IMG/VR virus record: IMGVR_UViG_3300020190_000042
Location: 1-64,000 of that record
Source: a virus
Length of the DNA: 64,000 nt
Direction: 5' to 3' (one strand)
The notes below the pieces were generated by a model. It had not been told where the DNA came from and did not search any database. It saw nothing but the letters and a program-made list of their open reading frames with translations. The position numbers and the translations under genes were made by a program. This document shows, in pieces, positions 904 through 48,483 of the stretch. The number at the start of each line of letters is the position of its first letter. Positions within the stretch are counted from its first letter, which is position 1.

Positions 904-1113
904 TCAAACGCCACGCAGGCCAATGCCGCTGATCTGATTCTGTAACTGTAACAACGTCTCTTTATGTTGAGCAGGATCACCTAACTCACCCCGCATAATC
1001 ATTTTATACAGTATCCTAGCTTCCTCACGTTGACGCGTCCTGTCCCCATAAGATGATGCCAGCGCAGGATCATTCTCCTCTGCTGTGAACACTTCACCTG
1101 CGAGTCGCATCAA
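904..1113 (-). CDS. Small protein with N-terminal RLAGEVF motif; lone minus-strand gene in the early array
   Basis: Fills the gap between + strand genes; N-terminus nearly matches RIAGEVF of 44201..44449. Confidence 0.7.
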   Translation of the reverse strand: MMRLAGEVFTAEENDPALASSYGDRTRQREEARILYKMIMRGELGDPAQHKETLLQLQNQISGIGLRGV

Positions 1114-1172
1114 CGTGTACCAAACCCATCGCTTCAGTCTAACCCAACAACAACACTAACCCCATCAACATC

Positions 1173-1520
1173 ATGCGAGTAATCGAACAGCAAATGCTGG
1201 ATGCAATCCGCAACCGCAAGGATTGGAAGAACGCAAACACCCGTGTGGAGGTAACACATTTCGCCCACGGTGATCGTGTTATCGACCGCATCAATGTGTA
1301 CCTGCACGGTAACAACATTGCTCGGATTGAACCCGACTGTGTTCGCATCTGTGACTGCGGGTGGCAGACACCGACAACAAAGTCACGACTTAATGTAATC
1401 CTGCACGACCTTTGTGAGGCAGGTATTTATCAGAAGAACCATAAGTGGTTTGGTGTTGCAATCGAAGAACAAGATTGGGAGATTGAGGAGAACAGCCAGC
1501 ACATCTTTGTGAGAGGCTGA
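1173..1520 (+). CDS. Conserved-type cyanophage hypothetical protein
   Basis: 115 aa; MRVIEQQM...VYLHGNNIA...GWQTPTTKSRLN resembles a common cyanophage family; A/C-rich leader. Confidence 0.8.
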   Translation: MRVIEQQMLDAIRNRKDWKNANTRVEVTHFAHGDRVIDRINVYLHGNNIARIEPDCVRICDCGWQTPTTKSRLNVILHDLCEAGIYQKNHKWFGVAIEEQDWEIEENSQHIFVRG

Positions 1521-1524
1521 ATCA

Positions 1525-1689
1525 ATGCCGTATTACATCCAGCGTAATAGTGAGGGCTTAGTCGAAACTGTGGACGAAGTTGATGATAGTAAGGAAGCGT
1601 ACAGGCTGGCAGCTGAGTACAACTCAGCAGATCAGGCTGCACGTTATTACGTTAAGCGCACGCCATGTAAAGCGTGGCGCGAACGTTAA
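1525..1689 (+). CDS. Small early protein (54 aa, not in ORF track)
   Basis: MPYYIQRNSEGLVETVDEVDDSKEAYRLAAEYNSADQAARYYVKRTPCKAWRER*. Confidence 0.75.
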   Translation: MPYYIQRNSEGLVETVDEVDDSKEAYRLAAEYNSADQAARYYVKRTPCKAWRER

Positions 1690-1693
1690 CCCT

Positions 1694-1712
1694 CTCCCGC
1701 TAACGCGGGGCC
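1694..1712. repeat. Early-region hairpin repeat, copy 2 (CTCCCGC-TAAC-GCGGGGCC)
   Basis: Followed by CACACAATTACAC and ATG at 1740. Confidence 0.95.
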
Positions 1713-1739
1713 GAATCACACAATTACACCAACATCACA

Positions 1740-2159
1740 ATGTCTTACACACAACACGCCGCAACAGCTACTTGTCAGATTACGAGTGTTCTCGACACGA
1801 GTGATCTAATCTCGCAGGTCTACGATTACCTAACTAACCACGGGGATGAAGCTCCTACTGAACTATTTAACTGCAGTTCTTCTGATGAGTTCTTTGACAT
1901 CCTCGAAACTTATGTAAGCGTCAGCGACAATATGCTGACCATCAACATGGACACCGAAAAAGTTAACTCTGACGGGGAAGTGTTTGACTTTCTGACTGAT
2001 CACTACGCCCACTTAATGAGCAGCGAGTTTATGAAAGTTGTGTGGGTGAGCTACGACAGTAGAAGCGGTCTGTCTGCAGACTGCACTTATTATGACAACC
2101 AAGGTAACGTGATCGACATTGAGAAACTACTCAAAACCCAGCCAAAGTCGGCTATTTAA
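1740..2159 (+). CDS. Hypothetical acidic early protein
   Basis: 139-aa ORF after repeat 2. Confidence 0.8.
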   Translation: MSYTQHAATATCQITSVLDTSDLISQVYDYLTNHGDEAPTELFNCSSSDEFFDILETYVSVSDNMLTINMDTEKVNSDGEVFDFLTDHYAHLMSSEFMKVVWVSYDSRSGLSADCTYYDNQGNVIDIEKLLKTQPKSAI

Positions 2160-2178
2160 CTGACGGAGACACATCACC

Positions 2179-2370
2179 ATGAGATTTTTAGTAACTGAGA
2201 TTGAGTTTGACTTCGATGACACCGCACCTACGGGTTATCGAGAAGATCTAACTTGTGAGGTCTGCACTACAATTTGGGACGCAGACGATGAAGATGATTT
2301 AGTAGAGGAAATTACCTGTGCAACGGGTTGGTGCATCAAAGGTCTTAATTATCAACACGTTTTGGTGTAA
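2179..2370 (+). CDS. Small acidic cyanophage-type protein
   Basis: EIEFDFDD...WDADDEDDLVEEITCATGWCI. Confidence 0.75.
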   Translation: MRFLVTEIEFDFDDTAPTGYREDLTCEVCTTIWDADDEDDLVEEITCATGWCIKGLNYQHVLV

Positions 2371-2375
2371 CAATT

Positions 2376-2531
2376 ATGTATCCACTCGAAGCATCCGATG
2401 AGTACGGTCTGCAAGGATTAGCAAATCGAGAGGATTTGCTGCAGTGGCTGCAATCGTGGCTACTGGACCCTGACAGCAGAGAATGTAAATTGGAGAAACT
2501 TTCAGATTTCAAACCTGACGACTACAACTAA
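2376..2531 (+). CDS. Small hypothetical protein (51 aa, not in track)
   Basis: ATG 2376 to TAA 2531, tightly packed between neighbours. Confidence 0.55.
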   Translation: MYPLEASDEYGLQGLANREDLLQWLQSWLLDPDSRECKLEKLSDFKPDDYN

Positions 2532-2533
2532 TC

Positions 2534-2701
2534 ATGGACATTTACAAACGCGTACATGGACAATCAGCGCAGGATAAATTGCGCGAACTGGTTGATCTCC
2601 ACGGGTACGAATTGTTTATTGCGCGGGCATTGTTGCTACGCGTCGATGACAAAGTATGCGAGGACTTGTTGGATGACATAGCGGAGGGCCGCATTATTTA
2701 G
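2534..2701 (+). CDS. Small hypothetical protein (55 aa, not in track)
   Basis: ATG 2534 to TAG 2701, ending 3 nt before repeat 3. Confidence 0.6.
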   Translation: MDIYKRVHGQSAQDKLRELVDLHGYELFIARALLLRVDDKVCEDLLDDIAEGRII

Positions 2702-2704
2702 TCT

Positions 2705-2722
2705 CTCCCGCTTCGCGGGGCC
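2705..2722. repeat. Early-region hairpin repeat, copy 3 (CTCCCGC-TTC-GCGGGGCC)
   Basis: Followed by TACACAATTACAC and ATG at 2756. Confidence 0.95.
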
Positions 2723-2755
2723 GCCTTACACAATTACACCATCATTACTAACATC

Positions 2756-3160
2756 ATGACCGGCAACAGTTCCGATGACGGCAAAGCACCCATCGTTCTC
2801 GTCATCGACCGCAACATGGACAACTTCGTTCAACACTACAGCATCAAACATCTAGAACCTAAAGGCTACGGATTGTGGTGGATTGATTCCTGTGGATCAC
2901 GATCTGTGCACTATTACGCACCCAGCGCAAACAATAATACCCGCGATCATTACGACACCGCAGAAGATCTGCCTGAAGATGTCTACAACAGCCTGCTCAA
3001 GTTCCTCACCACGCACTTAAAAATTGATCTGGACAGTCTCACAGTGCTGTACCGCATGGAAGATCCCGGACTTGGCATCATGCTGCCCGAGGATTACGAA
3101 GTCTTAAAACAAGGCGGCGTGCCTGATGGTTGTATTCCCGTCAAAACTGCCACTAAATAA
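2756..3160 (+). CDS. Hypothetical early protein
   Basis: 134-aa ORF after repeat 3. Confidence 0.75.
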   Translation: MTGNSSDDGKAPIVLVIDRNMDNFVQHYSIKHLEPKGYGLWWIDSCGSRSVHYYAPSANNNTRDHYDTAEDLPEDVYNSLLKFLTTHLKIDLDSLTVLYRMEDPGLGIMLPEDYEVLKQGGVPDGCIPVKTATK

Positions 3161-3162
3161 CA

Positions 3163-3330
3163 ATGACAAATCACACAGTTACACTCAGCAAACACACATG
3201 GTTGGGGGTACTAATTCACCTCAAAGAGACTGTGGAAACGATCCCAGTGTCAATAATCGAGCCAGATCCATGGGAATGTGTACAGAAAGCGATCGAGGAG
3301 ATCGAGCAGTTTGTAACTTTGGAGGATTGA
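3163..3330 (+). CDS. Small hypothetical protein (55 aa, not in track)
   Basis: MTNHTVTLSKHTWLGVLIHLKETVETIPVS...; preferred over the overlapping 3126..3350 frame. Confidence 0.6.
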   Translation: MTNHTVTLSKHTWLGVLIHLKETVETIPVSIIEPDPWECVQKAIEEIEQFVTLED

Positions 3331-3353
3331 CTTTATTGCCACACGGTTGATCC

Positions 3354-3371
3354 CTCCCGCTACGCGGGGCC
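3354..3371. repeat. Early-region hairpin repeat, copy 4 (CTCCCGC-TAC-GCGGGGCC)
   Basis: Followed by an A/C-rich leader and ATG at 3399. Confidence 0.95.
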
Positions 3372-3398
3372 GATTCACACACCTACATCTTCATCACA

Positions 3399-3632
3399 AT
3401 GTCACCCCTACCTCATACAGTAGAATCTCTGCTGGACCTGTTCACCGTATCCCAACTGCAACAAGTTTTCGAACATCAACTAAACCTTGATGAAACCGTA
3501 GACGATTGGGAGCAACGTCACCTGCTTGCCGTCGATTACCTATGTAACTACAGCGAGCTTATGTATTCCAAACAGCTCGCTAAATACTGCGACAAACTAC
3601 GCACCAAACTCAACCTCTACGATAACAACTAA
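3399..3632 (+). CDS. Hypothetical early protein
   Basis: 77-aa ORF after repeat 4. Confidence 0.7.
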   Translation: MSPLPHTVESLLDLFTVSQLQQVFEHQLNLDETVDDWEQRHLLAVDYLCNYSELMYSKQLAKYCDKLRTKLNLYDNN

Positions 3633-3886
3633 TGACACCAACAACTTTCTCTGTTTCCTTCGATCCATTAGCAGCACACTGCTTAGAGGAAATTGCCGCT
3701 GGTGACTATCGAACCGTCGAACACTTGATTCAGATACTTGTGTACCAAGGTATGCAGTCGTATCAGTTTGATCGTGAGCTAGTTGTACCCAAACGACCCG
3801 AAGATCACGACCTTAGCCTTAATAATAAGTTTCAGTATTACACAAACGAAGAAATCGTCGAATCCTTCAAACCTAAAATCAAATGA
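3632..3886 (+). CDS. Hypothetical early protein
   Basis: 84 aa, TAATG coupling. Confidence 0.7.
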   Translation: MTPTTFSVSFDPLAAHCLEEIAAGDYRTVEHLIQILVYQGMQSYQFDRELVVPKRPEDHDLSLNNKFQYYTNEEIVESFKPKIK

Positions 3887-4107
3887 TTAACACCGTAACT
3901 AAGCACACTCGCGCATCTGCTGCGGGCAAACTCATTTATTGCCCACACTGCGGTGTCGAATCTCGTGTGTACCACTTCAGTTTCTCTGCTCTCGTATGCC
4001 AGAAATGCAACAGAATCGTGGATAAATACGAGTATCTGCTGCAACCCTTGCGGTCCTCAGATACATCTGGCTACAAGTTTTTCCTCAATCGACTCACAGT
4101 AGTATGA
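3883..4107 (+). CDS. Zinc-ribbon small protein
   Basis: CPHC...CQKC motif pair. Confidence 0.7.
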   Translation: MINTVTKHTRASAAGKLIYCPHCGVESRVYHFSFSALVCQKCNRIVDKYEYLLQPLRSSDTSGYKFFLNRLTVV

Positions 4108-4436
4108 CTTACTTTGTACATTACGAAGACAGCGCAAACGTCCGGCGTGTCAACAACGTGTTGCACATTTGCACATCCAATGACGCTAACGGCAACCCGC
4201 GCAGACTGATCGTGTGTCTGGGATCTTACGGTCACATCGTTGCAACATTCGACGAAGGATGTGACTGGGGCGGACTTTACCAACTCGATAAAGACTTCGC
4301 TAGTTGGACAAATCGGCACAGCGTTCAAGTCAACGTAACCGTGTCTGAGTTCAATCGGTGGAGTTCATTTGAGCCCGGTAAGGTCTACAAAGTATCCACG
4401 CAGCCTGAACTTCCCGCCTTCCAACAACAGATTTAA
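4104..4436 (+). CDS. Hypothetical early protein
   Basis: 110 aa, ATGA coupling. Confidence 0.75.
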   Translation: MTYFVHYEDSANVRRVNNVLHICTSNDANGNPRRLIVCLGSYGHIVATFDEGCDWGGLYQLDKDFASWTNRHSVQVNVTVSEFNRWSSFEPGKVYKVSTQPELPAFQQQI

Positions 4437-4438
4437 TC

Positions 4439-4669
4439 ATGTCCTTTTACTTCATCGAAGTCACCGATACGTTCGGCGGCCAAGCAAATTACAGCTGGGT
4501 CGAAAAGTATTGCATCGAAGCAACAGACGCTACAGCGGTACGGCGAGCCAAACGTGAGATTGGTTGGAGTGGTGTTCGGTGTGACCGTCAAGACTGTGGG
4601 GAGTACATAGAATTACGTCCACGCGGTATGGCGCAGGTTGCGTTTATTCAGCGCGAGCACACTAGCTGA
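4439..4669 (+). CDS. Conserved-type small phage protein
   Basis: EVTDTFGGQANYSWV motif. Confidence 0.75.
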   Translation: MSFYFIEVTDTFGGQANYSWVEKYCIEATDATAVRRAKREIGWSGVRCDRQDCGEYIELRPRGMAQVAFIQREHTS

Positions 4670-4673
4670 CTCA

Positions 4674-4691
4674 CTCCCGCTACGCGGGGCC
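4674..4691. repeat. Early-region hairpin repeat, copy 5 (CTCCCGC-TAC-GCGGGGCC)
   Basis: 4 nt after the stop at 4669; ATG at 4715. Confidence 0.95.
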
Positions 4692-4714
4692 GCCGCATAC
4701 AACACCTCCACATC

Positions 4715-4909
4715 ATGAACTACTACAAAGTTAAAGTTCAAATCGAATCAAATCAAGGCGAGCATCTCGTAATGGAGACGCATCGTAATTTTGTTGCGGA
4801 TCAAGATGTATTTCTCTTCGCAAGCGGATTTGCTGATGGTTTCGCCATGGCACATGAAGGATCTGTGCTGGAGAAACAGATCGAGAAATTAAATGATGAT
4901 AGGAGCTGA
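4715..4909 (+). CDS. Hypothetical early protein
   Basis: 64-aa ORF after repeat 5. Confidence 0.7.
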   Translation: MNYYKVKVQIESNQGEHLVMETHRNFVADQDVFLFASGFADGFAMAHEGSVLEKQIEKLNDDRS

Positions 4910-5032
4910 GAGGAGCGAGTGGACTCACTTTGCACATTCTTTAGTCTTAAACGCACAGAAAACTATAACTATTTATAGATTTAGAAATTCGTGTTAAATT
5001 TACTTAGGTAATTAAAAGTTTTTCTTAATTCT

Positions 5033-5060
5033 TTGACAACCAAGCTACACATTGTATGAT
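5033..5060 (+). promoter_or_regulatory. Sigma70-type promoter
   Basis: TTGACA-N16-TATGAT downstream of a very AT-rich tract. Confidence 0.6.
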
Positions 5061-5166
5061 CTACAAAGCATTTAGTTTGCCTGAATGTTAAACCTTAAAC
5101 AATTATTTGTTTCAAACGCGAACACTAACTAAACTGATTAAACTCATGAGCGATTATTTCTGATCT

Positions 5167-5349
5167 GTGTCGTTTCAGCACACCGTTACCAAAACTCGCA
5201 AGTTTGACGTTTTTGCTCGTAAAGGCAAAACTGGCTGGGCTTATAAATGCACAATCGAAGCTAAGACTGAGGCCCACGCTAAAGAGCTTGTGCTCGAAGA
5301 ACATGTTGATCTCCAAAGGCATCAGCTGGCGGTTTACCCTAAACGCTAA
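5167..5349 (+). CDS. Small hypothetical protein
   Basis: 60 aa, GTG start, downstream of the promoter. Confidence 0.6.
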   Translation: MSFQHTVTKTRKFDVFARKGKTGWAYKCTIEAKTEAHAKELVLEEHVDLQRHQLAVYPKR

Positions 5350-5380
5350 TTATTTACCTTTGGTAAAGTTACAGAGGCGC

Positions 5381-5457
5381 CGGGACGCCTGAAGGCTGTC
5401 GCGTTTTTATGGGAGTTTAATCACGACATGTGTGGGGTTTGATTCCCCCGGTCCCGA
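5381..5457 (+). ncRNA. tRNA-like structured element (degenerate)
   Basis: CGGGAC/GTCCCG outer stem, GCC-TGAA-GGC arm, TGTCG/CGACA arm, GGGG-TTTGATT-CCCC T-arm-like hairpin; no CCA. Confidence 0.4.
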
Positions 5458-5555
5458 CTCACCTATTTACATAAAACTCCCAAACTGCTATGCTCCGCAT
5501 ACGGGCGGCACCGGCCCCAACCAACGTGGCGCGTCTACACTCACATTAAACTCCT

Positions 5556-5978
5556 ATGACCATTAAAACCTCTGAGCTTGTTTCACTAGGTGCAGTTGCC
5601 GCTGAGGCATTCGATGACTTCGACACTGCACAGAAACAATTAAACGATTCCTTTGGTATTCCCTACACCGCAGCCAAAGATAACTTGTTGAGAGACGTAA
5701 CTATTGCCGAGTCAGAAGGCGTAGATCTTCGTCTGTTTTCGGGAGAAGAAAGCCGGTTCCGATTCCCTACCTTTAATACAAACATTGTGGTGCGTATCCA
5801 CCGTAAGCCCACGCAGCACACCAAGCTGGAAAAGCTCGCGGCGAAAGTTACAAAGCTCGAAAGCGAATTGAAGCTGGCGAAAATGTGTCTAAAACATGAA
5901 GCTGAGCAACTTATTGCCGCAGGCGCTTGTGACGAATTTACAGACAAGATTGTCTTAGCCTTCACTCGGATCAAGTGA
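5556..5978 (+). CDS. Hypothetical protein with coiled-coil C-terminus
   Basis: 140-aa ORF. Confidence 0.8.
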   Translation: MTIKTSELVSLGAVAAEAFDDFDTAQKQLNDSFGIPYTAAKDNLLRDVTIAESEGVDLRLFSGEESRFRFPTFNTNIVVRIHRKPTQHTKLEKLAAKVTKLESELKLAKMCLKHEAEQLIAAGACDEFTDKIVLAFTRIK

Positions 5979-5983
5979 GACTC

Positions 5984-6145: not shown

Positions 6146-6184
6146 TCTCTGCTGAGGGGTCAGCCCCTAAGCGATGGAGTACGC

Positions 6185-6215
6185 GAGCCCTCTCCACGGA
6201 GAGGGTTCTTTACTT
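6185..6215 (+). terminator. Terminator- or attenuator-like hairpin
   Basis: GAGCCCTCTC-CACG-GAGAGGGTTC followed by TTTACTT. Confidence 0.5.
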
Positions 6216-14843: not shown

Positions 14844-15713
14844 ATGGCTCGCCGTCGTTATAACCTTGATTTTGCTGGACAGTCTTTCGGGTTTGAACTG
14901 CCCTCAGTTACCGAAGAAGACGGCGAGACGAAAACGGAATCAGTTTTAGCAGATTACTTCCCAGAAATTAAATTTTCCTTCGGCTCAAAAACCCAGCGAG
15001 GGGGTCGTTTAGGGCGCGCTGCTACTCAGGTTACTCCTGAACTTATGTTGAAACAAAAAGAAGTTGCGACTCTGGGAGGAGGTGGTCCAATTACCGTTGC
15101 CCCAACTTTTACTAATACTTTTACTCCTCCTCCTGCGGCTCCGGCGCCCGCACCGGTTCAAGAGGCTCCGAAACCGTCCCGACCTGCGATCTCAACGGCT
15201 TATGGCGTGAGCTCAAAGTATTTCGGTCACGAAGACTATTTCAGGAATTTAGAAGCTGGTTATACTCCTGCTGAATTAAAAGAATACATCATCAAAAATG
15301 AACAACTCCTCAACCCTGAGTCTTCCAATGTACGAGGTGGTGGAGGTCTATTTGATCAGATCATGAAGGGTCAAGTGCAAGTACAAACCGGTCTCCCTAC
15401 CACGCCTGTTACTCTTAAAACAGAATCGGCTCCTTCTGCGCCGCCTGCTCCTAAGTTTGAAAATCCTTTACAAACCCAGTCTTTTGTGTCAGCTCCGCAA
15501 ACCCCTCAGCCACGGGGTGAAATCTCTACTAAGTACGGTATTGACCCAACCTATTTCGGTGGGGAAGACGTGACAGCAGCTAAATCAATGGGTTACAGTG
15601 CTGGAGAAATCCTAGATTACATTGAACGCACTAAAGCTCCGTTGCGTGGTACTCATGTTCGTGGTGGCGGTGGGCTTTACGATCAGCTTATGAAAGAAGC
15701 CGGACGCGCATAA
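14844..15713 (+). CDS. Pro-rich protein with a duplicated ~55-aa domain (possible virion protein)
   Basis: Two copies of IST.YG....YFG.ED......GY...E...YI...VRGGGGL[FY]DQ.MK; TATAAT upstream near 14814. Confidence 0.8.
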   Translation: MARRRYNLDFAGQSFGFELPSVTEEDGETKTESVLADYFPEIKFSFGSKTQRGGRLGRAATQVTPELMLKQKEVATLGGGGPITVAPTFTNTFTPPPAAPAPAPVQEAPKPSRPAISTAYGVSSKYFGHEDYFRNLEAGYTPAELKEYIIKNEQLLNPESSNVRGGGGLFDQIMKGQVQVQTGLPTTPVTLKTESAPSAPPAPKFENPLQTQSFVSAPQTPQPRGEISTKYGIDPTYFGGEDVTAAKSMGYSAGEILDYIERTKAPLRGTHVRGGGGLYDQLMKEAGRA

Positions 15714-23588: not shown

Positions 23589-24296
23589 TTAGAGATAATT
23601 CCAGCCAGCTAATCCAGAGTTGCTGTCCTGCAAAGCCGCTTCCAGCAGAGCATCGCGTATAACGGGAACTTGCTTGCCAATAAGCTGCCCGACTTGCTGA
23701 GCGATTAAACGGTGCTCTTGTTGCGTCCCAGGCGCATTCCGCAACCCGACATAAAAGATCCAACTACGAAGCGTGCCCATCATGTGAAGGCGGGTCGGAA
23801 CGCACATCAACAAAATGTTACGGGCACATTCCTTCGCCACGCCTGCGTTAACCATCTCGGCGTACAGGTCCTGAGATTCCTCAAACAGATCAATAATTCG
23901 CTGCCGGAAACCGCGCTCCGCTTGATCGTCATCAAAGGCAAAGCTGTTTTGTCGATTTTTAAGATCCTGCGCCCGAAGCTCGAATAGCGGAGCGTCATCG
24001 ACGACCTGTTCAAGGACATCAGAGGGATCGCAATACCTTTGGCTCGTTTCCTGGAAAGTGAAGGAGCGGTGCCTAATGATCTGTGGCGAAATTGCCCGAG
24101 TCGTAATAATCTCAAACGAAGCACAAACCTGCTCAAACACACTCCAATGACCGTGTTTGATGCAGTAGTTCAGGAGACGGACCGCTTCCCCACGGTCTGG
24201 ATCTTTCGTGGAAACCCGGGCGTGGGCGGCAACAATCCGCTCAGCTTCCGGGGTTATCCAATCAAGACAAACCGAATGAAGCTTATTGCTCGCCAC
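23589..24296 (-). CDS. thyX: FAD-dependent thymidylate synthase
   Basis: HWSVFEQ, QIIRHRSFTFQETSQRY, KECARNIL. Confidence 0.96.
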   Translation of the reverse strand: MASNKLHSVCLDWITPEAERIVAAHARVSTKDPDRGEAVRLLNYCIKHGHWSVFEQVCASFEIITTRAISPQIIRHRSFTFQETSQRYCDPSDVLEQVVDDAPLFELRAQDLKNRQNSFAFDDDQAERGFRQRIIDLFEESQDLYAEMVNAGVAKECARNILLMCVPTRLHMMGTLRSWIFYVGLRNAPGTQQEHRLIAQQVGQLIGKQVPVIRDALLEAALQDSNSGLAGWNYL

Positions 24297-24447
24297 CGTG
24301 TTTGATTACTTTTGACCCAGGAATAATAGCCTCAGTAATACGCTCTACCAACCCCGGATTCCGTTTGGGTAGTTCCCCAGCCATACGCTGAGTCACGTAG
24401 GGCATCGAGGCGGGATCAGTCTGAGTGGCGGGTCCGGCGAAACGCAT
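24283..24447 (-). CDS. Small protein (54 aa, not in track) with two R-[FM]-AG motifs
   Basis: MRFAGPATQTDPASMPYVTQRMAGELPKRNPG... Confidence 0.65.
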   Translation of the reverse strand: MRFAGPATQTDPASMPYVTQRMAGELPKRNPGLVERITEAIIPGSKVIKHGGEQ

Positions 24448-24449
24448 TG

Positions 24450-24581
24450 TCAGGTCCTGGGAAAAGCTTCTTGGTAACGAAGACGGCGGGTAACTTCAGA
24501 GGGAGTAATCCCAGCCAGCTTGTACGGTTCTAAACCGAGGCGCTGACCGGCCATCCGAATCGGAAAATCGGTGTCCCTCAT
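24450..24581 (-). CDS. Small protein (43 aa, not in track) with RMAG motif
   Basis: MRDTDFPIRMAGQRLGLEPYKLAG...; ATGA coupling with 24578..25072. Confidence 0.65.
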   Translation of the reverse strand: MRDTDFPIRMAGQRLGLEPYKLAGITPSEVTRRLRYQEAFPRT

Positions 24582-30535: not shown

Positions 30536-33013
30536 TCACCTAGCGCGGGCGTAGGCGAAGGGCGATTCGGCAAAACTCGCATACACATACGTTGTTCCGT
30601 TGCCATTTACTTCAGTGCCAGATGCGCGAAACTTGAAGCCATTAGAAAGAATGTCAACGTAGCGAAGTGAGCTAGAAAACTCTGCCTCAGATGTATCTGC
30701 CCGAAGAAAGGCGTCAACCACGTTGTACGTCGAACGCGCTGTGTCGATGATGATCCAGCTTTCGTTTGTAATAGAAGTTGCTTTAAGAAGTATCCACCTA
30801 GGACGGTGCCCGGTATAAACAAACGGCCCATCCGAGCTGCCGTTGCCGGTGTAGCTGCCAAAAGAAGAGTACCCGGCTACTGGGGCGAAGCAGTAGGCGA
30901 TTAAGCCTTCACCTGATCCGCTATTGCCACCAACATCGGTATTGATGCCAATAGTAAAAATACTACTGGTAGGTTCTGTGTTGTTCCAAATGCCAAAGTT
31001 GGATGAAGCAGCGGCAGTTGAATTAAGGACTAATGGCAAAGAAGCACCAGAGGCAGAGTGATAGACGCGCCAGTTGGCTGATCCATCATTGCGATTCTTC
31101 AGGATAATTAGATTAGGTTTTACACCAAGTCCGTGGCCTACGGTTCTTGCCGATCCCGTATATGCCGCTGTATAACTAACCACCGAAAAACCCGCACTAG
31201 CATTAGCCCTCACCTGAGAAGTGATGCTGCCTTGTGTGTTGGATGCGGTAGAAGAACCGGCGTCCCACGCCCAAGCCACGTAGCTATTGCCGTTGATGTT
31301 TGTGCTGAAAGTGGTGCCGCCTGATCCGGTTGAGAAACCAGTCGAATCGAATGACGTTAGCGAGTTACTATCGGTAATCTCTCCGTTGGTTAAGTTGGAA
31401 AATAAACCTTTTGTGGTGCCACGAATTACGTCGAATAAGCCGTGACCATTTGCTTGTGAACGGTCTTTGATCCAAACAAAGTCAGGCGAGAAGTTCAGCC
31501 CACTGATGGTCTGCGTTGAGCCATTGCCGGTGTAGAGCTTCACGTCCATGTAGTCCGAGCCTTTGGCAATCGTCGGCGTCGGCAGGTTGGCCGTGCAGAG
31601 GGATTTGAAGCCCGCTGGTGCTGCATAACTAAACTGGCGTTGGCCGAAGTTATAGTCCCACGTCATTGAGTTTCCGTAACTAATCTGAGAAACCGGCGTA
31701 TACGTGCCCGATGTCAAATTGAATAAGGCTGTCCCTCCGGGACTTAGCCCATCTATCCACGTTCCGTTCTTGTGTGCGTAAAATTTATTGTTGTCGAGAT
31801 CAAATGCAATTCCGATAATGTCGCCTTGAACTGCTCTCGTTGTGTTCGTTGCAGTGGCAGACCCATTGTTAATCTTATAAATATTCGCAAAAGCGGTGTA
31901 GTTATAGATTATGTATGAAGTCGCGTACTGTCCCGGTTCTTTAGTTAAATCTATCTTGGTGATGTCAGTAACGCCAACGGCTGCGTCGGATCCAGAATTA
32001 GTCCAAGAGGTTAAAGTACCCTCGAAATACCATTTGCCGGATGACGCTGCAAATGTAGACGGTCGCTCTCTGCCGTTACCACTTCCGCCTGAGTGCGTCA
32101 GGTTTCCATTAGACAAAGTGCCGTTGGAACTGGAAAGCGGATTCAACGTCGCATAGTTCCCCACCGTGACGCCACCCGCGTCTCCTCCAGTGCTGGCGGT
32201 GCCATTAGAGGGGGAGTCTACGAGGCTGTCGTTGCCTGCGCCTGCCGTGACTGAAAGGTTGTTCGGCGTCCAGTTGTGCCCGTTGCCAGAAGTGTCCTTC
32301 CCTAATGTGCTGGCGGTGTTGTTGCTGTTGTCGGCAAAGTCGAGGTGGAAGCCGTTGGTGCCGTAGCTGCCGCTGTATGCCTTGGGGTTCCACGCGCCCG
32401 TGGTGGCGTCGGTTTCGGCGAAGTCTCCCGGAACCTTGGCAGACCCATCAATGAAAAATATATCCGCTAAATAAGCTGATAAATAAGCCTCTGTATAGGC
32501 ACCAGTCCGCCCAATGTCGTGAGCGTTTGCGGCATTGATGAACGAGTTTTCGCTAGGACCGGGATACGTTGCCGTTGAGAATGAAGTTTGCTGCGTGCCG
32601 TTTACATAAACCTTTGCACGATTGCTGGAGGTGCCTTGGGTGGTGTCCCAAACAATGACGATGTGATACCAAGCAGAAACGTCTCGGAAGACGGCGGTTG
32701 TTATCAGGTTGGTTGTAACACTTCCACCCGCCTGGTTAAGGATTCGGAGCTTGTCGTCCGACTCAAACATCAACTGCGTTCTATTGGAGCCATCGCTGTA
32801 ACCGTCAAACAATGTTTGCTGACTTCCAAGAGCACTTCTTTTGACCCACGCGCTCCAGGTCCAAGTGGTTCTGCTGCCTGCCGATGAGTAGGTTCTGGCA
32901 CAGAAACCACTGTCACTACTGTTGAAACGCAGTGATCTTGAAATTTGATAGCCTGCGGCTCCACCGCCAGCTGCCGCAGACAACAGCAGTTGTTTACCGG
33001 AAGTTAGGCTCAT
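30536..33013 (-). CDS. Tail fibre / receptor-binding protein (LamG/ConA-like, SPRY-like, C-terminal repeat domains)
   Basis: SLRFN...TWSAWVKR...FRDVSAWYHIV; SSGKWYFE...GDIIGIAFDLDN; YTGNG...PDFVWIK repeats. Confidence 0.85.
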   Translation of the reverse strand: MSLTSGKQLLLSAAAGGGAAGYQISRSLRFNSSDSGFCARTYSSAGSRTTWTWSAWVKRSALGSQQTLFDGYSDGSNRTQLMFESDDKLRILNQAGGSVTTNLITTAVFRDVSAWYHIVIVWDTTQGTSSNRAKVYVNGTQQTSFSTATYPGPSENSFINAANAHDIGRTGAYTEAYLSAYLADIFFIDGSAKVPGDFAETDATTGAWNPKAYSGSYGTNGFHLDFADNSNNTASTLGKDTSGNGHNWTPNNLSVTAGAGNDSLVDSPSNGTASTGGDAGGVTVGNYATLNPLSSSNGTLSNGNLTHSGGSGNGRERPSTFAASSGKWYFEGTLTSWTNSGSDAAVGVTDITKIDLTKEPGQYATSYIIYNYTAFANIYKINNGSATATNTTRAVQGDIIGIAFDLDNNKFYAHKNGTWIDGLSPGGTALFNLTSGTYTPVSQISYGNSMTWDYNFGQRQFSYAAPAGFKSLCTANLPTPTIAKGSDYMDVKLYTGNGSTQTISGLNFSPDFVWIKDRSQANGHGLFDVIRGTTKGLFSNLTNGEITDSNSLTSFDSTGFSTGSGGTTFSTNINGNSYVAWAWDAGSSTASNTQGSITSQVRANASAGFSVVSYTAAYTGSARTVGHGLGVKPNLIILKNRNDGSANWRVYHSASGASLPLVLNSTAAASSNFGIWNNTEPTSSIFTIGINTDVGGNSGSGEGLIAYCFAPVAGYSSFGSYTGNGSSDGPFVYTGHRPRWILLKATSITNESWIIIDTARSTYNVVDAFLRADTSEAEFSSSLRYVDILSNGFKFRASGTEVNGNGTTYVYASFAESPFAYARAR

Positions 33014-34056
33014 GAGACAGTGCCAGAACCAAAGTTAAGGTTACTAACAACATTAATACGGTTGGAGTTAACAACGTAATAGCCAAACATATCGATACCG
33101 CTAGCCGTCGTTGTTAGTGTAGGTGCTGTATTACTAGCGAACGACCACGAACCGCTATAAGTAAGTAAGCGAGTTCCTGCGCTGTCCTGGCGAACAATTA
33201 TGGCTCCACATTGACCGCCACTGGCATTAGTCGGTCTAGCAAGGGTTGATGTACCCGCAGTCAAAACAATTTCAAAATTATCGCGAGCACCCAAATTTAA
33301 AATAATTACACCAGAACCTAAAATAGTACCGCTAGGAACGCCAAATGTTTGAGACTGAGTAAAGGCTGGTCCGCTAATGGGCCCACCAGTTTTGTCATAT
33401 TTACCTGTTAAACCAGCAAGAGCTGCGTTACCAGAAGCTAAAGCTGTAGAACCAACTACAAGAGCAGCATTGCCGGAAGCTAAAGCTGTAGAACCAACTA
33501 CAAGAGCAGCATTGCCGGAAGCTAAAGCTGTAGAGGCAACTAAGTTAGCTGAGTTTGCTGTCGACTGAGCACTTGCAGCGTTAGCAATACCTAAGTTGCC
33601 GCTTGCTAGTGCATTTGCAGCAGCCAGTAAAGCGGCATTACCAGAAGCTAAAGCTGCAGTACCAGAAGCTAAAGCTCTAGAACCAACTACAAGAGCAGCA
33701 TTGCCGGAAGCAAGGGCGGTGGCTGCATTAGTTAAAGCGGCGTTACCCGAAGCAAGAGCACCGGCTCCCACGACGAGCGCGGCATTTCCAGAAGCTAAGG
33801 CGGTCGCCGCCCCGGCAATACCTAAATTGCCAGAAGCTAAGGCACTGGCCCCAACAACGAGAGCTGCGTTACCAGAAGCCTGAGCAACAGCGGCGTTTGC
33901 AATACCAAGATTGCCGCTTGCTAGTGCATTTGCTGCGGCAACGAGAGCAGCATTACCCGAAGCTTGTGCTGTAGTATCAATACCCGGAACTAAATCACCG
34001 GGCGGTAATTCGGACGAAGCTCCGCTGATTAAAACAATTGGTTTACGCGTAACCAT
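33010..34056 (-). CDS. Tail-fibre stalk protein with 14-aa ALASGNAAL repeats
   Basis: About 13 ASG repeats; C-terminal GQCGAIIVRQD...APTLTTTA domain. Confidence 0.8.
   Translation of the reverse strand: MVTRKPIVLISGASSELPPGDLVPGIDTTAQASGNAALVAAANALASGNLGIANAAVAQASGNAALVVGASALASGNLGIAGAATALASGNAALVVGAGALASGNAALTNAATALASGNAALVVGSRALASGTAALASGNAALLAAANALASGNLGIANAASAQSTANSANLVASTALASGNAALVVGSTALASGNAALVVGSTALASGNAALAGLTGKYDKTGGPISGPAFTQSQTFGVPSGTILGSGVIILNLGARDNFEIVLTAGTSTLARPTNASGGQCGAIIVRQDSAGTRLLTYSGSWSFASNTAPTLTTTASGIDMFGYYVVNSNRINVVSNLNFGSGTVS
33434..33534. repeat. 42-bp tandem repeat (~2.4 copies)
   Basis: GAAGCTAAAGCTGTAGAACCAACTACAAGAGCAGCATTGCCG at 33434, 33476 and partial at 33518; near-copy near 33664. 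Confidence 0.9.
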
Positions 34057-41084: not shown

Positions 41085-41643
41085 TTTTGTATCTCCGCCG
41101 GAAGTTGTTGGCGTAACGACTTCATTTTTTAATGGGTCTATTGATTTAGACCCAGCGTCGAGTGAAGACGCAAATACTTTAATTAACGCCAATCGATTTT
41201 TCACGCACGAACACAACGGTTTAGTCCAGGATTGGCGCGGTAAGAACGTTTATCTTTATCCACCACGCGATGTTTTGCTTTCGGGGGAACAACCAAAAGA
41301 GGTTTTGTTGTTTAACCGTCGCCGAAGATTTCAAAAGTCAGCTCAGCGAGTGTGGCTCGAAGAGTGTCTTAGACGTTATCGAAAAGCTGAATTTGACGAA
41401 GCAATCATTTTTTTAACTTCTTCGCAAGTTGCGTTATTAGTTACGCAGAAGTTAAATATTGATCTGCCTATGTGCGTACTGAAGCATCACCCTAATTTGC
41501 ACTTAGATAGTCCTGGATTACCAAAACTAGAGAGCACTCGATGCCTTGGTTTTGTTTTATATTTACCTTCTCCTTTTAATACAGAAGAAAGGATTATGGA
41601 ATTCGCTAGGTTATATAGTCAGCTGGGCCGTGTATATTGCTGA
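41065..41643 (+). CDS. Phage Dam-family N6-adenine methyltransferase with altered motif IV
   Basis: SPPE...IDLDPASS...NGLVQDW.G.NVYLYPPR (NPPY expected). Confidence 0.75.
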   Translation: MPLAAIDFVSPPEVVGVTTSFFNGSIDLDPASSEDANTLINANRFFTHEHNGLVQDWRGKNVYLYPPRDVLLSGEQPKEVLLFNRRRRFQKSAQRVWLEECLRRYRKAEFDEAIIFLTSSQVALLVTQKLNIDLPMCVLKHHPNLHLDSPGLPKLESTRCLGFVLYLPSPFNTEERIMEFARLYSQLGRVYC

Positions 41644-41908
41644 GTGATTCGACCGTACCGTAGGTATTGTCCGGTCCGTAAGAATCGCGGTTTGCAAATC
41701 CAAGGCCCACGGGGGTGTTCTTCATCTGAGCGAACGTGCGCTCGCGGCGCAAACGTTTTTGTCTTTCATCTGAGCTTTCCGCCCAGACTTGTCCCGCTAA
41801 ACGAATTACGTTTCGGCTGCGATACCGATAGTCGTGTTTAGCAAAGGGCGCCTCCCCGTGGAAGCGAATTTTACGTTCGTGCCCAGATTCCCTAATGGAA
41901 TCAGACAT
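41606..41908 (-). CDS. Small basic protein with RLAGQ motif
   Basis: 100 aa; VIRLAGQVW. Confidence 0.7.
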   Translation of the reverse strand: MSDSIRESGHERKIRFHGEAPFAKHDYRYRSRNVIRLAGQVWAESSDERQKRLRRERTFAQMKNTPVGLGFANRDSYGPDNTYGTVESLSNIHGPADYIT

Positions 41909-42451: not shown

Positions 42452-43801
42452 TTAAAACACTGGTTGTCCTTTAGCCAGTCTATCGCGAATTTGATAGCCT
42501 ATCTTCAAAACTTCAGGACTGGTCTTGTTCTCACCTGGATTATAGAAATCAGCGGAAACGTGAGCTCCAGTAGTAGAACCACTGCGACCTTGTGTACCGA
42601 TAAATGTTCCGGGATCAATAACGGCGCCAGGTTTTAGACCGGGATTAAGTTTATCGAAATGAGCCAGACGCACATCGAATGCTCGTCCCGTCTGCGGGTC
42701 GACGCCACGGAGATCGACGTAATTCCCGTAGCCTCTACGGCCTGGACCTTTTTCTAAATTAGTTTCCCAAGGATCGTTAACTACCTTTAAAACTTGGGCT
42801 TTAAATGGGAGGTTGAATGCCGCCCCACGACCGCCGGGAATCACAAAGTCAAATCCTGGCTCACCAGAAGTATCAACGGCAGAGGTGATTTGAACCCCCG
42901 GAATTGTTGTTCCTCCAGAAGGAGTCAGTGCCCCGGTGGACATAGGCTGAGCACCTATGGATTTATTTAGCTGACTTTCTAAAGCTTCAGCTTGTTGGTT
43001 GAAAACTTTTTCGGTTAATTTTGCCTGCAGAATTTGTGTTGCTAAGGCTGTTGGATCAGCGTTCGGCGTTACAGATTCCATCGAAGCCGATAAGGCTTCA
43101 GCTCGATACTTTTCAGCTAAGTCAGTAATACCCTGTTCATCTAAAGCATTAGCTAGCTCTAAGTATTTAGTTGCTTGATCCCCCGTCGATGCGGGCTGTT
43201 CTGTTTTGGTAGCAAACTCACTAACAATATTTTTAAGCGCTCCTTTGAAATCAAATCGAGGTATAGAAACCGGACTTACAGAAGAAGTTTCGGTTGTACT
43301 CTGATCCTGAACTACGGGACTGGGTACGCGCCCGTAAACCTCCTGAATCGAACTTAAGGATTTGACGGGCTGACCATAATAGCTTTTACCCGATTCAGTC
43401 GGGAAAGATGCCCACGCGGGGGATAAAGCGGCGGCAACTCGTGGACTTAACCCCTCTTGCTTTAAAGCAGCGAGACCGCCAATCTTCATCAGCTTGTCCC
43501 GAGCCAAAGCCAAGGCGGCAATATCCTGCTCTTTGGGTCCGAAAGAGCCCAGTCCTAATCGAGACGCATAAGAACCCCAGGTATAAGGCATGAACTGATA
43601 TGCACCTGCCGCTGCGCTCTTATATCCCCCGCTAGAAATAACAGTATCGGGGTGCTTACTCAGATCGCTAAAAGTGCCGCCACCAAACATAGTTTGGTAA
43701 CCTTTAGGTCCTGCAGTCCCTTCAGCAAAACGAATCGCCTGTAATAACCGCTGCCCCTCAGGAGTCTGGCGAAACTGTTCCAGTAATTGCCGCTCATTCA
43801 T
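42452..43801 (-). CDS. Virion-associated peptidoglycan hydrolase: lambda-R-type muramidase plus M23-like domain
   Basis: AIRFAEGT...SAAAGAYQF...WASFP; GYGNYV...AHF...GTQGRSGSTTGAHV. Confidence 0.85.
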   Translation of the reverse strand: MNERQLLEQFRQTPEGQRLLQAIRFAEGTAGPKGYQTMFGGGTFSDLSKHPDTVISSGGYKSAAAGAYQFMPYTWGSYASRLGLGSFGPKEQDIAALALARDKLMKIGGLAALKQEGLSPRVAAALSPAWASFPTESGKSYYGQPVKSLSSIQEVYGRVPSPVVQDQSTTETSSVSPVSIPRFDFKGALKNIVSEFATKTEQPASTGDQATKYLELANALDEQGITDLAEKYRAEALSASMESVTPNADPTALATQILQAKLTEKVFNQQAEALESQLNKSIGAQPMSTGALTPSGGTTIPGVQITSAVDTSGEPGFDFVIPGGRGAAFNLPFKAQVLKVVNDPWETNLEKGPGRRGYGNYVDLRGVDPQTGRAFDVRLAHFDKLNPGLKPGAVIDPGTFIGTQGRSGSTTGAHVSADFYNPGENKTSPEVLKIGYQIRDRLAKGQPVF

Positions 43802-43863
43802 CAGGTATTACTGGAACTAAATTTCCAATAACTTAGTTTAAATGATCCTGACTAAAGAAGAAC

Positions 43864-44115
43864 TTATTCCTCTGCGTCAAGCTCATCATCAAATAAACTC
43901 ATGTTGGTATCCATAGCAATACCAACCTCACTCATTACAGTTTTATAAGCCCGTTCGCGACAAATTAACTTAAATACCGTGGCCCACAGAAACTGATCGC
44001 GGTCTTTGTCCTTCAGTGAGTGAGCCGTGGTGCGGATACGGGTCAGAACAAATTCATCTTCGAGAGTAAGCCCGCAATCAAGGCTTTGAGACTCATTTGA
44101 CTTACGGGAAGCCAT
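43864..44115 (-). CDS. nblA: NblA-like protein (copy 2)
   Basis: GLTLEDEFVLTRIRTTAHSLKDKDRDQFLWATVFKLICRERAYKTVM matches NblA spacing. Confidence 0.65.
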   Translation of the reverse strand: MASRKSNESQSLDCGLTLEDEFVLTRIRTTAHSLKDKDRDQFLWATVFKLICRERAYKTVMSEVGIAMDTNMSLFDDELDAEE

Positions 44116-44200
44116 CGCGGTGAGCCGACTAATTAAAGTCTAGCTCTACTCACAAAAAAGCTCTTAAAGTTATAGCACAGAATGTCTTAATCGTTCTGTA

Positions 44201-44449
44201 TCACCAGTTTTTGCAGCTCCAATAGCCTGGAGTTAACTTACTCTTTTTCTCGTCACAGCTATGCCTAGATCTAAACGCAGCGCGTCGTTTAGGATCATCG
44301 CTACGATTTTCCATATTCGGATCACCAAAGCGAACTAAACGAACAGTATCGCCTTCTTTAGCCGCCACGGAGTATTCCTTACCGCTCTGAACGTCACGCT
44401 TGGGCTGGTTATACCTTTTGAAAACTTCTCCTGCGATACGAATTGTCAT
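44201..44449 (-). CDS. Conserved-type small phage protein with N-terminal RIAGEVF
   Basis: VRLVRFGDPNM...RRAAFRSRHSC...TPGYWSCKNW. Confidence 0.8.
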   Translation of the reverse strand: MTIRIAGEVFKRYNQPKRDVQSGKEYSVAAKEGDTVRLVRFGDPNMENRSDDPKRRAAFRSRHSCDEKKSKLTPGYWSCKNW

Positions 44450-44576
44450 AGAACTAAACGCTGCAATTTAATATTAGCCGACCGAAAAATAAAGAACACC
44501 TTTAATCGGATAAGACTGAGCGTGCACAGAAGAAACAGAGCTAATATACAACCGTCACATTTTCTCCGCATATACA

Positions 44577-44846
44577 ATGTCGGACGGTAAAGCACTTCTT
44601 ACCATCGCTGAAACCGCTGAACTTCTTAACTGCAGCTCCGGCTTTGTGCGTAAGCGCATCGCGCTGTCTGAAGCTAATCAGCCTGGCGGGTGGCCCAAAT
44701 CTGTGTACGTGAACCTGCAACCTAACGGTGCAAAATCTCTGTACCGGGTAAACAAAACTGCGCTCGAAGAGTATCTCCAAAGTTCCCCTACCGCTAAAGT
44801 GGAGGCAGAAGAAACTCCGATGGCGGCTGTTGCCTGCACTTTCTGA
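44577..44846 (+). CDS. Excisionase/MerR-like HTH protein
   Basis: LLTIAETAELLNCSSGFVRKRI...YRVNKTALEEYL. Confidence 0.8.
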   Translation: MSDGKALLTIAETAELLNCSSGFVRKRIALSEANQPGGWPKSVYVNLQPNGAKSLYRVNKTALEEYLQSSPTAKVEAEETPMAAVACTF

Positions 44847-44847
44847 T

Positions 44848-45381
44848 ATGACGTTCTCCGGCTCTTTTGAGGCAGCTCCCACCCCTATGCCGGGTGAGGC
44901 AATCGTCATTATCGAAGAGCAGGAATTGAAGCCTGTGGCCACGGCTGACGAGCTTATTAGTCAACTTGTGGCCCTCGCCTCTTATACCAATCAGCTGTAT
45001 TTACAGGCTCACCTCATTCATCTGAATGTGGAGGGGCCTATTTTTCTGCCGATCCACGAGTTCCTTAAAGAGCAGTACGATGCGCATATTGCGCAGTTCG
45101 ATGCGCTGAGCGAGTTTGTTCGCTCAATGGATTATTTAATGCCTATGTGCGCAAAAGGTCTTCAAGGCGCCTACAAAAACTTTAAGCACATTAAATCATA
45201 CGAAGCCCGCGAGATGCTGACGGTGTACGTCAAAAATCTCGAAGCTGCTGGTTTCATGGCTAAAGATGTCGGTATGACTGCTAAGGAAGTGCAAGCACCC
45301 GACATCGAAAATTACCTGGCGGAACTTGTGGGGATGATGTTCAAAGCTGCCTGGTTCCTCAAAGCGACTCTGCGCGATTAA
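44848..45381 (+). CDS. dps: Dps/ferritin-like protein
   Basis: AHLIHLNVEGPIFLPIHEFLKEQY...FDALSEFVR...KAAWFL. Confidence 0.8.
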   Translation: MTFSGSFEAAPTPMPGEAIVIIEEQELKPVATADELISQLVALASYTNQLYLQAHLIHLNVEGPIFLPIHEFLKEQYDAHIAQFDALSEFVRSMDYLMPMCAKGLQGAYKNFKHIKSYEAREMLTVYVKNLEAAGFMAKDVGMTAKEVQAPDIENYLAELVGMMFKAAWFLKATLRD

Positions 45382-46034
45382 ATTGCAGTCCAGGTATTAG
45401 AGAACTGAATATATAGACCCGCCGCGTAAACACCGGAGGTTTGTATTTGGTAAAACAAAGCTCCAGAACCATAACTGCTCGGACTAGGTAATCCGCTTAG
45501 TCCTATATCGGCACTTTTAACTGTGCCCGAGGCCAAGATCGCCCCTGACGCCAAAGTGGCTGTATTAGCTGTGATTGCTCCCGAGGCCAAGATCGCCCCT
45601 GACGCCAAAGTGGCTGTATTAGCTGTGATTGCTCCCGAAGCCAAGACAGCGCCGGAAGCTAATACTGCTACGTTTGCAATACCAGCAACGGAAGCTGAGT
45701 CTGCCGTGGTTGACGAATCAGAAAAAGACGCTCCGATCTTTTGCCACGCTGAGCCTGTCCAAACTTTTAAATAGTAAGCAGACGTAGAGCTGTCGGACCA
45801 CAGTTCACCAACTGAGTTACCCGCTACTCCAACGGGAGTTGAGTTAGGCGCCGTGGCCCCATAATGCGAGGGACCGATCTTCCTGATAGCACCAGCTGAG
45901 TCTTCGAAATAAAGCCCTGGATCGGCGGCACCCACTGCCATAGCCAGTTCACCGTTCTGAATAACAGTTCCGCTAGGGCGATCAGACGATTGACCGGAAC
46001 GCTTTAAAAGAAGAACAACAGGTGTTGAAGTCAT
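45378..46034 (-). CDS. Short tail fibre with LASGA repeats
   Basis: LLKRS...RP...GELAM...GLYFED N-terminal fibre anchor; GELWSD; 11 SG. Confidence 0.75.
   Translation of the reverse strand: MTSTPVVLLLKRSGQSSDRPSGTVIQNGELAMAVGAADPGLYFEDSAGAIRKIGPSHYGATAPNSTPVGVAGNSVGELWSDSSTSAYYLKVWTGSAWQKIGASFSDSSTTADSASVAGIANVAVLASGAVLASGAITANTATLASGAILASGAITANTATLASGAILASGTVKSADIGLSGLPSPSSYGSGALFYQIQTSGVYAAGLYIQFSNTWTAI
45526..45638. repeat. Perfect 54-bp tandem duplication
   Basis: Unit starts at 45526, 45580 and partial at 45634; encodes GAITANTATLASGAILAS. Confidence 0.95.
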
Positions 46035-46035
46035 A

Positions 46036-47571
46036 TCAGTACGTACCGCCGTTGATCAACGAAGGGAATCCAGCGGGCGGAATTAAGACCCCGTTAGCAT
46101 ACTGCCCTCCAACAAAAGTGTTAATAGGTTGCGATACTAAAACCCCGTTGGCGTATGTACCGCCGTCATACACCTGAAGTTGATCGAAGTTAATCGGAGC
46201 GAATGGGTCGAATTCCTCGATGGTAAACATCTCGAAATTCTCCGCCTCCATTGGCGTCAAAGAATTTATATTTCCAAAGTTCAGTGTTTTACCCATCATG
46301 TTGTACATGTCGGGGTACATCATGTGCGTAGGCATATCGTTTTTCGCAGGGCTATACCTCTGCCACCACACGAGATTTCGCTCGCGTTTAAAAAAGTCTG
46401 TCTGTTTAGCTAAATCAATTTCGAATTTTTCTCTGTAATACTCGTTCATCGGTTCGTCGTTTGGTTGAGCTAACCACATCGATGTTGTAGTGGTCTGCCC
46501 AAATCGCAGCTGAAGATCCCACATAGCCGCATAAATATGCTTACACCAACGCGGCTGATAATAAAAAACGTTTGGATCTGAGTACACGGCTTCCGTATAC
46601 TCAGGGATGTTATAAATTTCGTTTAGATATATAAAACCAAATGTCCGAGCAAAACCAGGGTTGTCATTAGAAGGAACCTGCCGCACAGTCGAGTCGGGAC
46701 CGGCATCGTAAAAACCTGGATTGGTATTCTGGACTCGGGTAAACGGATATTTACGACGCAACGAGGCTTCATAAAGATTGAAACCTTCTCGGGCTAAGAA
46801 ATCCGGGCAAGTGCATTGAGACCGCATTTCGGTAGTCAAATATTCCCCGACTGCCGGAGGACCTGTAGCAGGAACTGCCATGGTCGTGGAATTAACCACG
46901 GCCCAGCTATTAGCTTCGGTATGGGATAAAAACAGAGTATTAAATATGGGCAGAAAACCCGGAGCTTGAGGAACCCCGTTAATTCCTACAGCGGTAACCG
47001 TATAGTTGTTATATCCGTACGCTTTTTCTGTGCCGTCTGCGTTATATCTATTTGATAAAACTTCTCCAGCAAAGAATGAAATTGGTGCGCCAAAGTTAGA
47101 ACTCAACCGAACCGCATAAGTGTTTGCGTCGTAATCAGTGACGGAAACGACCGAATAACCAAAATTCAGGAAGTTAAATGAATCCCTAGGTCGAATTCCA
47201 ACCATCCACATGCGCATGTCTGCACGCGTGGTTGGATACATAAAAGCAATACCAGGCAAAAATGTCCCAACACCGGGAGCACCTGATACAAAATATTTAA
47301 AGCTATACGTCAGACCTTCATATGCTTGCTGCGAGTACATCGCAAGCTCATACCCACGTCTCCAACGAGCCCAAAGGGACGCGTAATCGTAGTCACTTAA
47401 AAGACTAAAGTTTTTAGTCCCCGTGACAGGACGAAAGCGTCTTTTAAACGGTAGAGGACGTAATAATTCGCCTGCGTTATCAGAACCGCGAATCGTGCGA
47501 GGTTGATTTACAGGGTTAGTGGCTTTAAAATCTCGAAAGCCAAAATTATCAGATCCTCTTTTTCTTGCCAC
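46036..47571 (-). CDS. Probable tail/structural protein with a split SWIM-like Zn motif
   Basis: QCTCPDF...WCKHIYA; C-terminal GGTY/GGQY repeats. Confidence 0.7.
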   Translation of the reverse strand: MARKRGSDNFGFRDFKATNPVNQPRTIRGSDNAGELLRPLPFKRRFRPVTGTKNFSLLSDYDYASLWARWRRGYELAMYSQQAYEGLTYSFKYFVSGAPGVGTFLPGIAFMYPTTRADMRMWMVGIRPRDSFNFLNFGYSVVSVTDYDANTYAVRLSSNFGAPISFFAGEVLSNRYNADGTEKAYGYNNYTVTAVGINGVPQAPGFLPIFNTLFLSHTEANSWAVVNSTTMAVPATGPPAVGEYLTTEMRSQCTCPDFLAREGFNLYEASLRRKYPFTRVQNTNPGFYDAGPDSTVRQVPSNDNPGFARTFGFIYLNEIYNIPEYTEAVYSDPNVFYYQPRWCKHIYAAMWDLQLRFGQTTTTSMWLAQPNDEPMNEYYREKFEIDLAKQTDFFKRERNLVWWQRYSPAKNDMPTHMMYPDMYNMMGKTLNFGNINSLTPMEAENFEMFTIEEFDPFAPINFDQLQVYDGGTYANGVLVSQPINTFVGGQYANGVLIPPAGFPSLINGGTY

Positions 47572-47574
47572 GTA

Positions 47575-48129
47575 TTAATAGAACCCGCCTTGGGCCCAGA
47601 TCGTGATTCCGGAAGAGCTAAGACCGCCAGAAACAGAAGTAGGACCGTTGCCGAGATAGCCGGCGCAAAGGATATAACCTTTTTCAAGGTAAAGACCTTC
47701 TCCTTTACCGATTTGAATCGGAGCAATGATGTTTGTGTCACCGGTTTTGGGCACCGGAGCATTAACAGCAAACAGCTGTACGGGAAGCGGATAACCAAAG
47801 GTACTTCCGCTCAGCCCCACCTCGAAACGACCCACCATAAGAGCCGCCGACGTAGAAGGTGCGGCCTGGTTAGGAGCGTAAACGTAAAGCCCAATGTCAG
47901 CGGTTCGAATACCGCTCTTATCAGGGTAATCTTCGTTGCTAACAATCGTGATGTCCTCAACGAGAGCCGCGTCTTCTGAAGGCAGGTCACCCACGCGGAC
48001 TAACTGAATCAGATCAGTCAGATTCGGGTTCGTCGGATCGCATTGTCCCGTGCCGCTGGTAATGCGCGCGCCGCGAAGAAACGGGCGGTCAATCAGACAG
48101 GGCTGCTTGTTTGTGCTAGTCGAGGCCAT
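47575..48129 (-). CDS. Virion structural protein
   Basis: 184 aa, beta-rich, ends AQGGFY; 5 SG. Confidence 0.7.
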   Translation of the reverse strand: MASTSTNKQPCLIDRPFLRGARITSGTGQCDPTNPNLTDLIQLVRVGDLPSEDAALVEDITIVSNEDYPDKSGIRTADIGLYVYAPNQAAPSTSAALMVGRFEVGLSGSTFGYPLPVQLFAVNAPVPKTGDTNIIAPIQIGKGEGLYLEKGYILCAGYLGNGPTSVSGGLSSSGITIWAQGGFY

Positions 48130-48147
48130 TGTATGCGCTCTGTAATA

Positions 48148-48483
48148 TTAGAGAAGCAGACCCTTGAGGGGATTGAAGGAATCGGCTTCCTTCGTAGATT
48201 TATCAACAATCGATTTCAGTAAATCAGCTAGGTAACTCTCCTGACGCTGGGTCTGCAGATATTCCTGCAAACGTGATCCGGCCATGCGCGGAGCTTCGCC
48301 ACGGATGCCTCGGATTAAATCACCAACTCCACCAAACAAATCTTGGAGACCGGCGCCAGCAGCTAAATAGTCAAAACCGGGTTTAGAAGGACTCGGAGCA
48401 GTACTACTCCCGACGCCGCCAAAGTCACTAATAGTTGCTTGATCCGACGGAGTGATGTAGTCCGTGTATGAGTAGTTAGGCAT
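48148..48483 (-). CDS. Probable internal virion protein with RMAG motif
   Basis: 111 aa; APRMAGSRL. Confidence 0.7.
   Translation of the reverse strand: MPNYSYTDYITPSDQATISDFGGVGSSTAPSPSKPGFDYLAAGAGLQDLFGGVGDLIRGIRGEAPRMAGSRLQEYLQTQRQESYLADLLKSIVDKSTKEADSFNPLKGLLL

Follow-up and report, generated by a model that had tools for sequence, protein, structure and literature searches.

An N-terminal R-x-A-G peptide recurring in unrelated, mostly small proteins of S-EIV1-like cyanophages: a candidate shared interaction motif

Several unrelated, mostly small proteins of a cyanophage related to Synechococcus phage S-EIV1 have in common a short peptide with the cross-family consensus [M/I/F/V]-R-[L/M/I/F]-A-G-polar-x-[F/W/L]. 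This peptide appears to be kept by selection at the protein level, mostly within the first dozen residues. Our tentative reading, to which we assign a probability of roughly 0.45 on the basis of sequence comparison, is that it represents a clade-specific interaction motif of the S-EIV1-like cyanophages, through which the different carriers would bind one common partner; the binding, the partner and the purpose are what we infer. Where it can be modelled, the motif takes the form of a hairpin of two strands that turns at A-G. If such a shared label exists, at least five orphan families would be grouped into one functional set, and the peptide, employed as bait, would provide a handle on the common partner.

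The window analyzed here covers nucleotides 1 to 64,000 of an IMG/VR virus record of 75,226 bp, whose estimated completeness is 93%. The portal protein is 46% identical to that of S-EIV1, which was its sole match in the phage collection, and Megablast comparison of the region with the phage collection matched nothing. The phage belongs among the uncultured freshwater cyanophages related to S-EIV1. Phages of this type are widespread in fresh water, and for most of their genes no function has been assigned. The minus strand encodes, from ~62.7 down to 23.6 kb, the terminase, the portal (55367-57601), the major capsid protein (52154-53269), a lysozyme/M23 protein, a fibre protein and an endolysin, and the DNA polymerase and primase are encoded in a plus-strand block. 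A glycosyltransferase family 17 domain (57799-58641, minus strand) has the terminase on one side and the portal on the other. At 51201-52145, two long ORFs overlap on opposite strands, and the real gene is probably the minus-strand ORF at 51276-52139, which has an ATG start. Comparisons drew on 80 related loci together with nine whole genomes of relatives.

All nine peptide strings quoted in the first-pass annotation were recovered in place, the strict matches all being on the minus strand (Table 1). The six proteins containing the seven strict matches sum to 459 aa, in agreement with the earlier figure of about 460 aa.

Table 1. Proteins of the window with a strict or degenerate match to the R-x-A-G motif (positions in the window).
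Protein	Position	Strand	Length (aa)	Motif copies and their positions	Remarks
904 protein	904..1113	-	68	MRLAG at the extreme N-terminus; RLAG, 1096-1107	Likely start ATG at 1110
44201 protein	44201..44449	-	82	IRIAGEVF, 44420-44443	Basic
41606 protein	41606..41908	-	100	IRLAGQVW, 41783-41806; degenerate upstream copy IRFHGE, 41852-41869	Basic
24450 micro-protein	24450..24581	-	43	RMAG, 24546-24557	
24283 micro-protein	24283..24447	-	54	RFAG (N-terminal), 24433-24444; RMAG, 24376-24387	
14844 protein	14844..15713	+	289	Degenerate N-terminal copy LDFAGQSF; DFAG, 14868-14879	Repeat protein
48148 protein	48148..48483	-	111	RMAG, 48277-48288	

The homologues of five carriers (904, 44201, 41606, 24450 and 24283) retain the motif. 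Among the 21 homologue clusters of the 904 protein, MR[LF]AG is located at the extreme N-terminus, and residues M1, R2, A4 and G5 are at least 90% conserved. In the alignment of the 44201 family, G7, E8 and F10 do not vary at all, and conservation reaches at least 90% at I3, R4 and A6. The 41606 family comprises 51 sequences with 25-79% identity, in which M1, E11, R36, A38, G39 and P79 alone are invariant. When the profile of this family was compared with 1.8 billion representatives, just 24 proteins were retrieved, and R-hydrophobic-A-G is kept in every full-length one. The sequence FPIRMAGQRL of the 24450 micro-protein is conserved in 46 homologue clusters, with R, A and G at 90% or more, and the homologues of the 24283 micro-protein in two relatives keep MR[FI]AG as well as R-x-A-G at the second site. 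Such duplication of the motif occurs in some carriers. The third codon positions of the motif vary freely. This synonymous variation indicates that selection acts on the protein level and, together with the differing codons, rules out a DNA- or RNA-level element.

The matches listed by the first-pass annotation are not all of this kind, and its proposal of a short linear motif stands for a conserved, protein-level, N-terminal peptide on unrelated proteins but not for the 48148 and ALMAGN (59198) matches. Of the two weaker variants, LDFAGQSF is a genuine degenerate copy, as supported by a homologue of the 14844 protein in a relative that has MDDRLAGDVFGFGF where the window protein has LDFAGQSF (same position; counterpart RLAGDVFGFGF), whereas ALMAGN is not conserved. 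APRMAGSRL in the 48148 protein does not hold as a copy of the motif: R is absent from most of its 33 homologues and M-A-G is partly kept, and from these sequences its RMAG is probably a chance or lineage-limited match. The 14844 protein also includes two internal repeats that end in RGGGGL[FY]DQ[IL]MK, along with Pro/Ala-rich linkers, and its homologue in a relative matches DUF4214. As had been claimed, the carriers are otherwise dissimilar, with no similarity outside the motif. When the profiles of the 44201 and 41606 families were compared, the alignment was restricted to the 12-residue motif, and an origin of the carriers as paralogues is ruled out, since the similarity ends there.

In six genomes of the clade, 22 matches were found within the first 16 residues of 860 proteins, compared with 0.85 in shuffles of those residues; when counted per cluster, the values were 8.8 and 0.40, respectively. 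The result was replicated in independent families from the nine relatives and S-EIV1, after removal of the window's genome and all carrier homologues. In this set, 8 of 571 clusters have a match in the first 16 residues versus 1.07 expected (maximum of 5 in 1000 shuffles), some of these matches being sporadic within their own clusters. The C-termini of the same clusters exhibited no excess, and Syn5, lambda and P60, with 203 proteins between them, gave no N-terminal match. Moreover, a Gly/Ala-rich family of 141-190 aa that is absent from the window has the N-terminal motif in 22 of its 24 members. The earlier remark that the motif often lies near the N-terminus is thus borne out and extends to other families of related genomes, with the exception of the 41606 protein, in which it is internal.

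The AF2 model of the 44201 protein (pLDDT 85.8) has a strand at residues 3-5, a turn at A-G and a strand at residues 8-10, within a small alpha/beta fold. Comparison of this fold with BFVD identified predicted viral proteins (TM 0.83), some of which are annotated as XkdF or ChaB; Foldseek and VIA-align found no match to the fold in the PDB, and a PDB sequence search returned nothing useful. The 44201 protein matches the phrog_7595 profile over its whole length (E = 3e-17), has a weak match to a minor-head-protein profile, and reaches 15 bits with Pfam DUF5754, under the cut-off of 27.4. It is a member of a phrog_7595/DUF5754-like viral domain, of which the motif is the first hairpin, but this relationship accounts for one carrier only. 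The 44201-type domains in unrelated phages read [K/T]-Y-R-G-E-x-F, so that the 44201 hairpin is largely ancestral, with clade specificity limited to one residue. For the 41606 protein, modelling gave a poor result (pLDDT 69), in which the motif falls in a helix; thus, the hairpin is not generalizable to the other carriers. Searches of the ESM Atlas with the 41606 and 24450 proteins were empty. Kinship of the carriers with DUF4278, which is made up of YRGxxY repeats, was also considered and rejected, there being no Pfam match in the carriers. The sole weak DUF4278 match in the genome is a small ORF beyond the window (74335-74463, minus strand) which contains ITYRGCKY and LSYRGIKY, a unit resembling the ancestral form of the 44201 hairpin.

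The carriers might instead contain independent structural elements: each family would maintain a hairpin or turn to suit its particular fold, and the peptides would look alike because amphipathic hairpins are commonly built in this way, with no shared partner. The 44201 motif, being integral to a widespread domain and largely ancestral, is consistent with this explanation, as are the 16903 and 36087 proteins, whose N-termini have a related phi-A-G but lack the R. However, it leaves the clade-specific N-terminal excess in independent families unexplained and gives no account of R, A and G as almost the sole invariant residues of the 41606 family, and we consider it somewhat unlikely.

With ORFs called greedily across the whole 75-kb record (n = 135; 23,811 aa), R[LIMF]AG occurs 7 times versus 1.5 expected from within-protein shuffles (P = 0.0016). 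Its density per 1000 is 0.29 in coding frames, as against 0.07 in the remaining ones, and the matches are confined to ORFs of 115 aa or less. The comparison made in the first-pass annotation, seven matches against one or two by chance, is therefore numerically correct (1.5-2 expected), but it is not significant alone after correction for the choice of pattern. R[LIMF]AG ranks 1616th among the degenerate 4-mers of this proteome, and a pattern with a lower p was present in 60 of 60 shuffled proteomes. Likewise, the pair MRLAGEVF/IRIAGEVF (score 33) is ordinary among 8-mer pairs, the best pairwise match between carriers being unremarkable. Because the pattern was picked post hoc and the count fails correction, this statistic alone cannot establish the motif. 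The strongest 4-mer enrichment in the proteome comes from the repeat ALASGNAAL(V)VG, of which ~13 copies fill the first ~215 residues of a 348-aa protein adjoining the fibre gene (33010-34056, minus strand). An explanation by chance and post hoc choice of the pattern, with no biological signal linking the carriers, would fit the rank of R[LIMF]AG and the ordinary 8-mer pair as well as the lack of conservation of the 48148 and 59198 matches, but it is improbable in view of the conservation in several families and the replication in independent families and genomes.

A maturation cleavage site, also suggested in the first-pass annotation, at which a viral or host protease would cut at or after A-G in the manner of the poxvirus AG-X sites or of Prp on proteins of the staphylococcal phage 80alpha, is compatible with the invariant A-G and the N-terminal position but is unlikely, because no homologue of six protease families (S77, S78, S78_2, C57, C48 and ClpP) was detected in the record, and because a cut would remove just 5-7 residues from two carriers and split the conserved 41606 protein, and the position after G varies. 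The negative result comprises both the prohead proteases (S77, S78, S78_2 and ClpP), among which divergent members may escape detection in a record that is 93% complete, and the clan CE cysteine proteases (C57 and C48).

Returning to the shared interaction motif, the sub-case that we favour is that small basic carriers would be loaded into the virion without proteolytic removal of the peptide. We regard this as plausible, albeit with a low probability. The 44201 domain is elsewhere fused to XkdF-type and minor-head proteins, i.e., joined to head-associated proteins, three carrier families are located in the structural module beside the lysozyme/M23 protein, and four carriers are basic (pI 9.5-10.2). 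Against loading, other carriers are found in the early and replication modules. The first-pass annotation had placed the carriers in the morphogenesis orientation, which is accurate for the strand of the strict matches, but strand was the sole ground for assigning them to morphogenesis: the 904 gene sits in the early block, the 24283 and 24450 micro-proteins adjoin thyX, and the 14844 gene is beside the DNA polymerase. The ThyX gene itself (Thy1, E = 5.5e-39; 23589-24296, minus strand) is directly downstream of the two micro-proteins. Should the peptide turn out to direct loading, it would amount to a tag for protein packaging that needs no maturation protease. More speculatively, and with a probability that we judge to be slight, the R-x-A-G hairpin could constitute a protease-independent address code with which S-EIV1-like cyanophages bring small basic proteins into the capsid, the two-copy micro-proteins 24283 and 24450 competing for, or regulating, the same receptor.

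Among known systems, the morphogenic cleavage sites of poxviruses, A-G-X, are characterized by an invariant Ala-Gly on virion-associated proteins. Ala-Gly is likewise invariant in R-x-A-G, but nothing in the poxvirus sites corresponds to the R or to the hydrophobic position, and a C57/C48 protease was not detected here. The internal proteins of T4 provide a closer parallel, as a short N-terminal peptide, the capsid targeting sequence (CTS), is common to otherwise diverse small proteins whose genes are scattered (PMC3012670). R-x-A-G is also a short N-terminal peptide on unrelated proteins, apart from the internal copy in 41606. It differs from the CTS in its sequence, in that neither a gp21-type protease nor a cut site was found, and in being internal in one carrier and embedded in a fold in another. 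In phage 80alpha, a Prp/L27-type N-terminal motif is present on non-homologous capsid and scaffold proteins (PMC5744158). Here too, one N-terminal motif is shared by non-homologous phage proteins; however, the 80alpha motif copies an extension of a host ribosomal protein and is cut by a host protease, and no such counterpart or cut is known for R-x-A-G. R-x-A-G is a member of neither the T4 CTS nor the 80alpha Prp motif, which are its nearest analogues.
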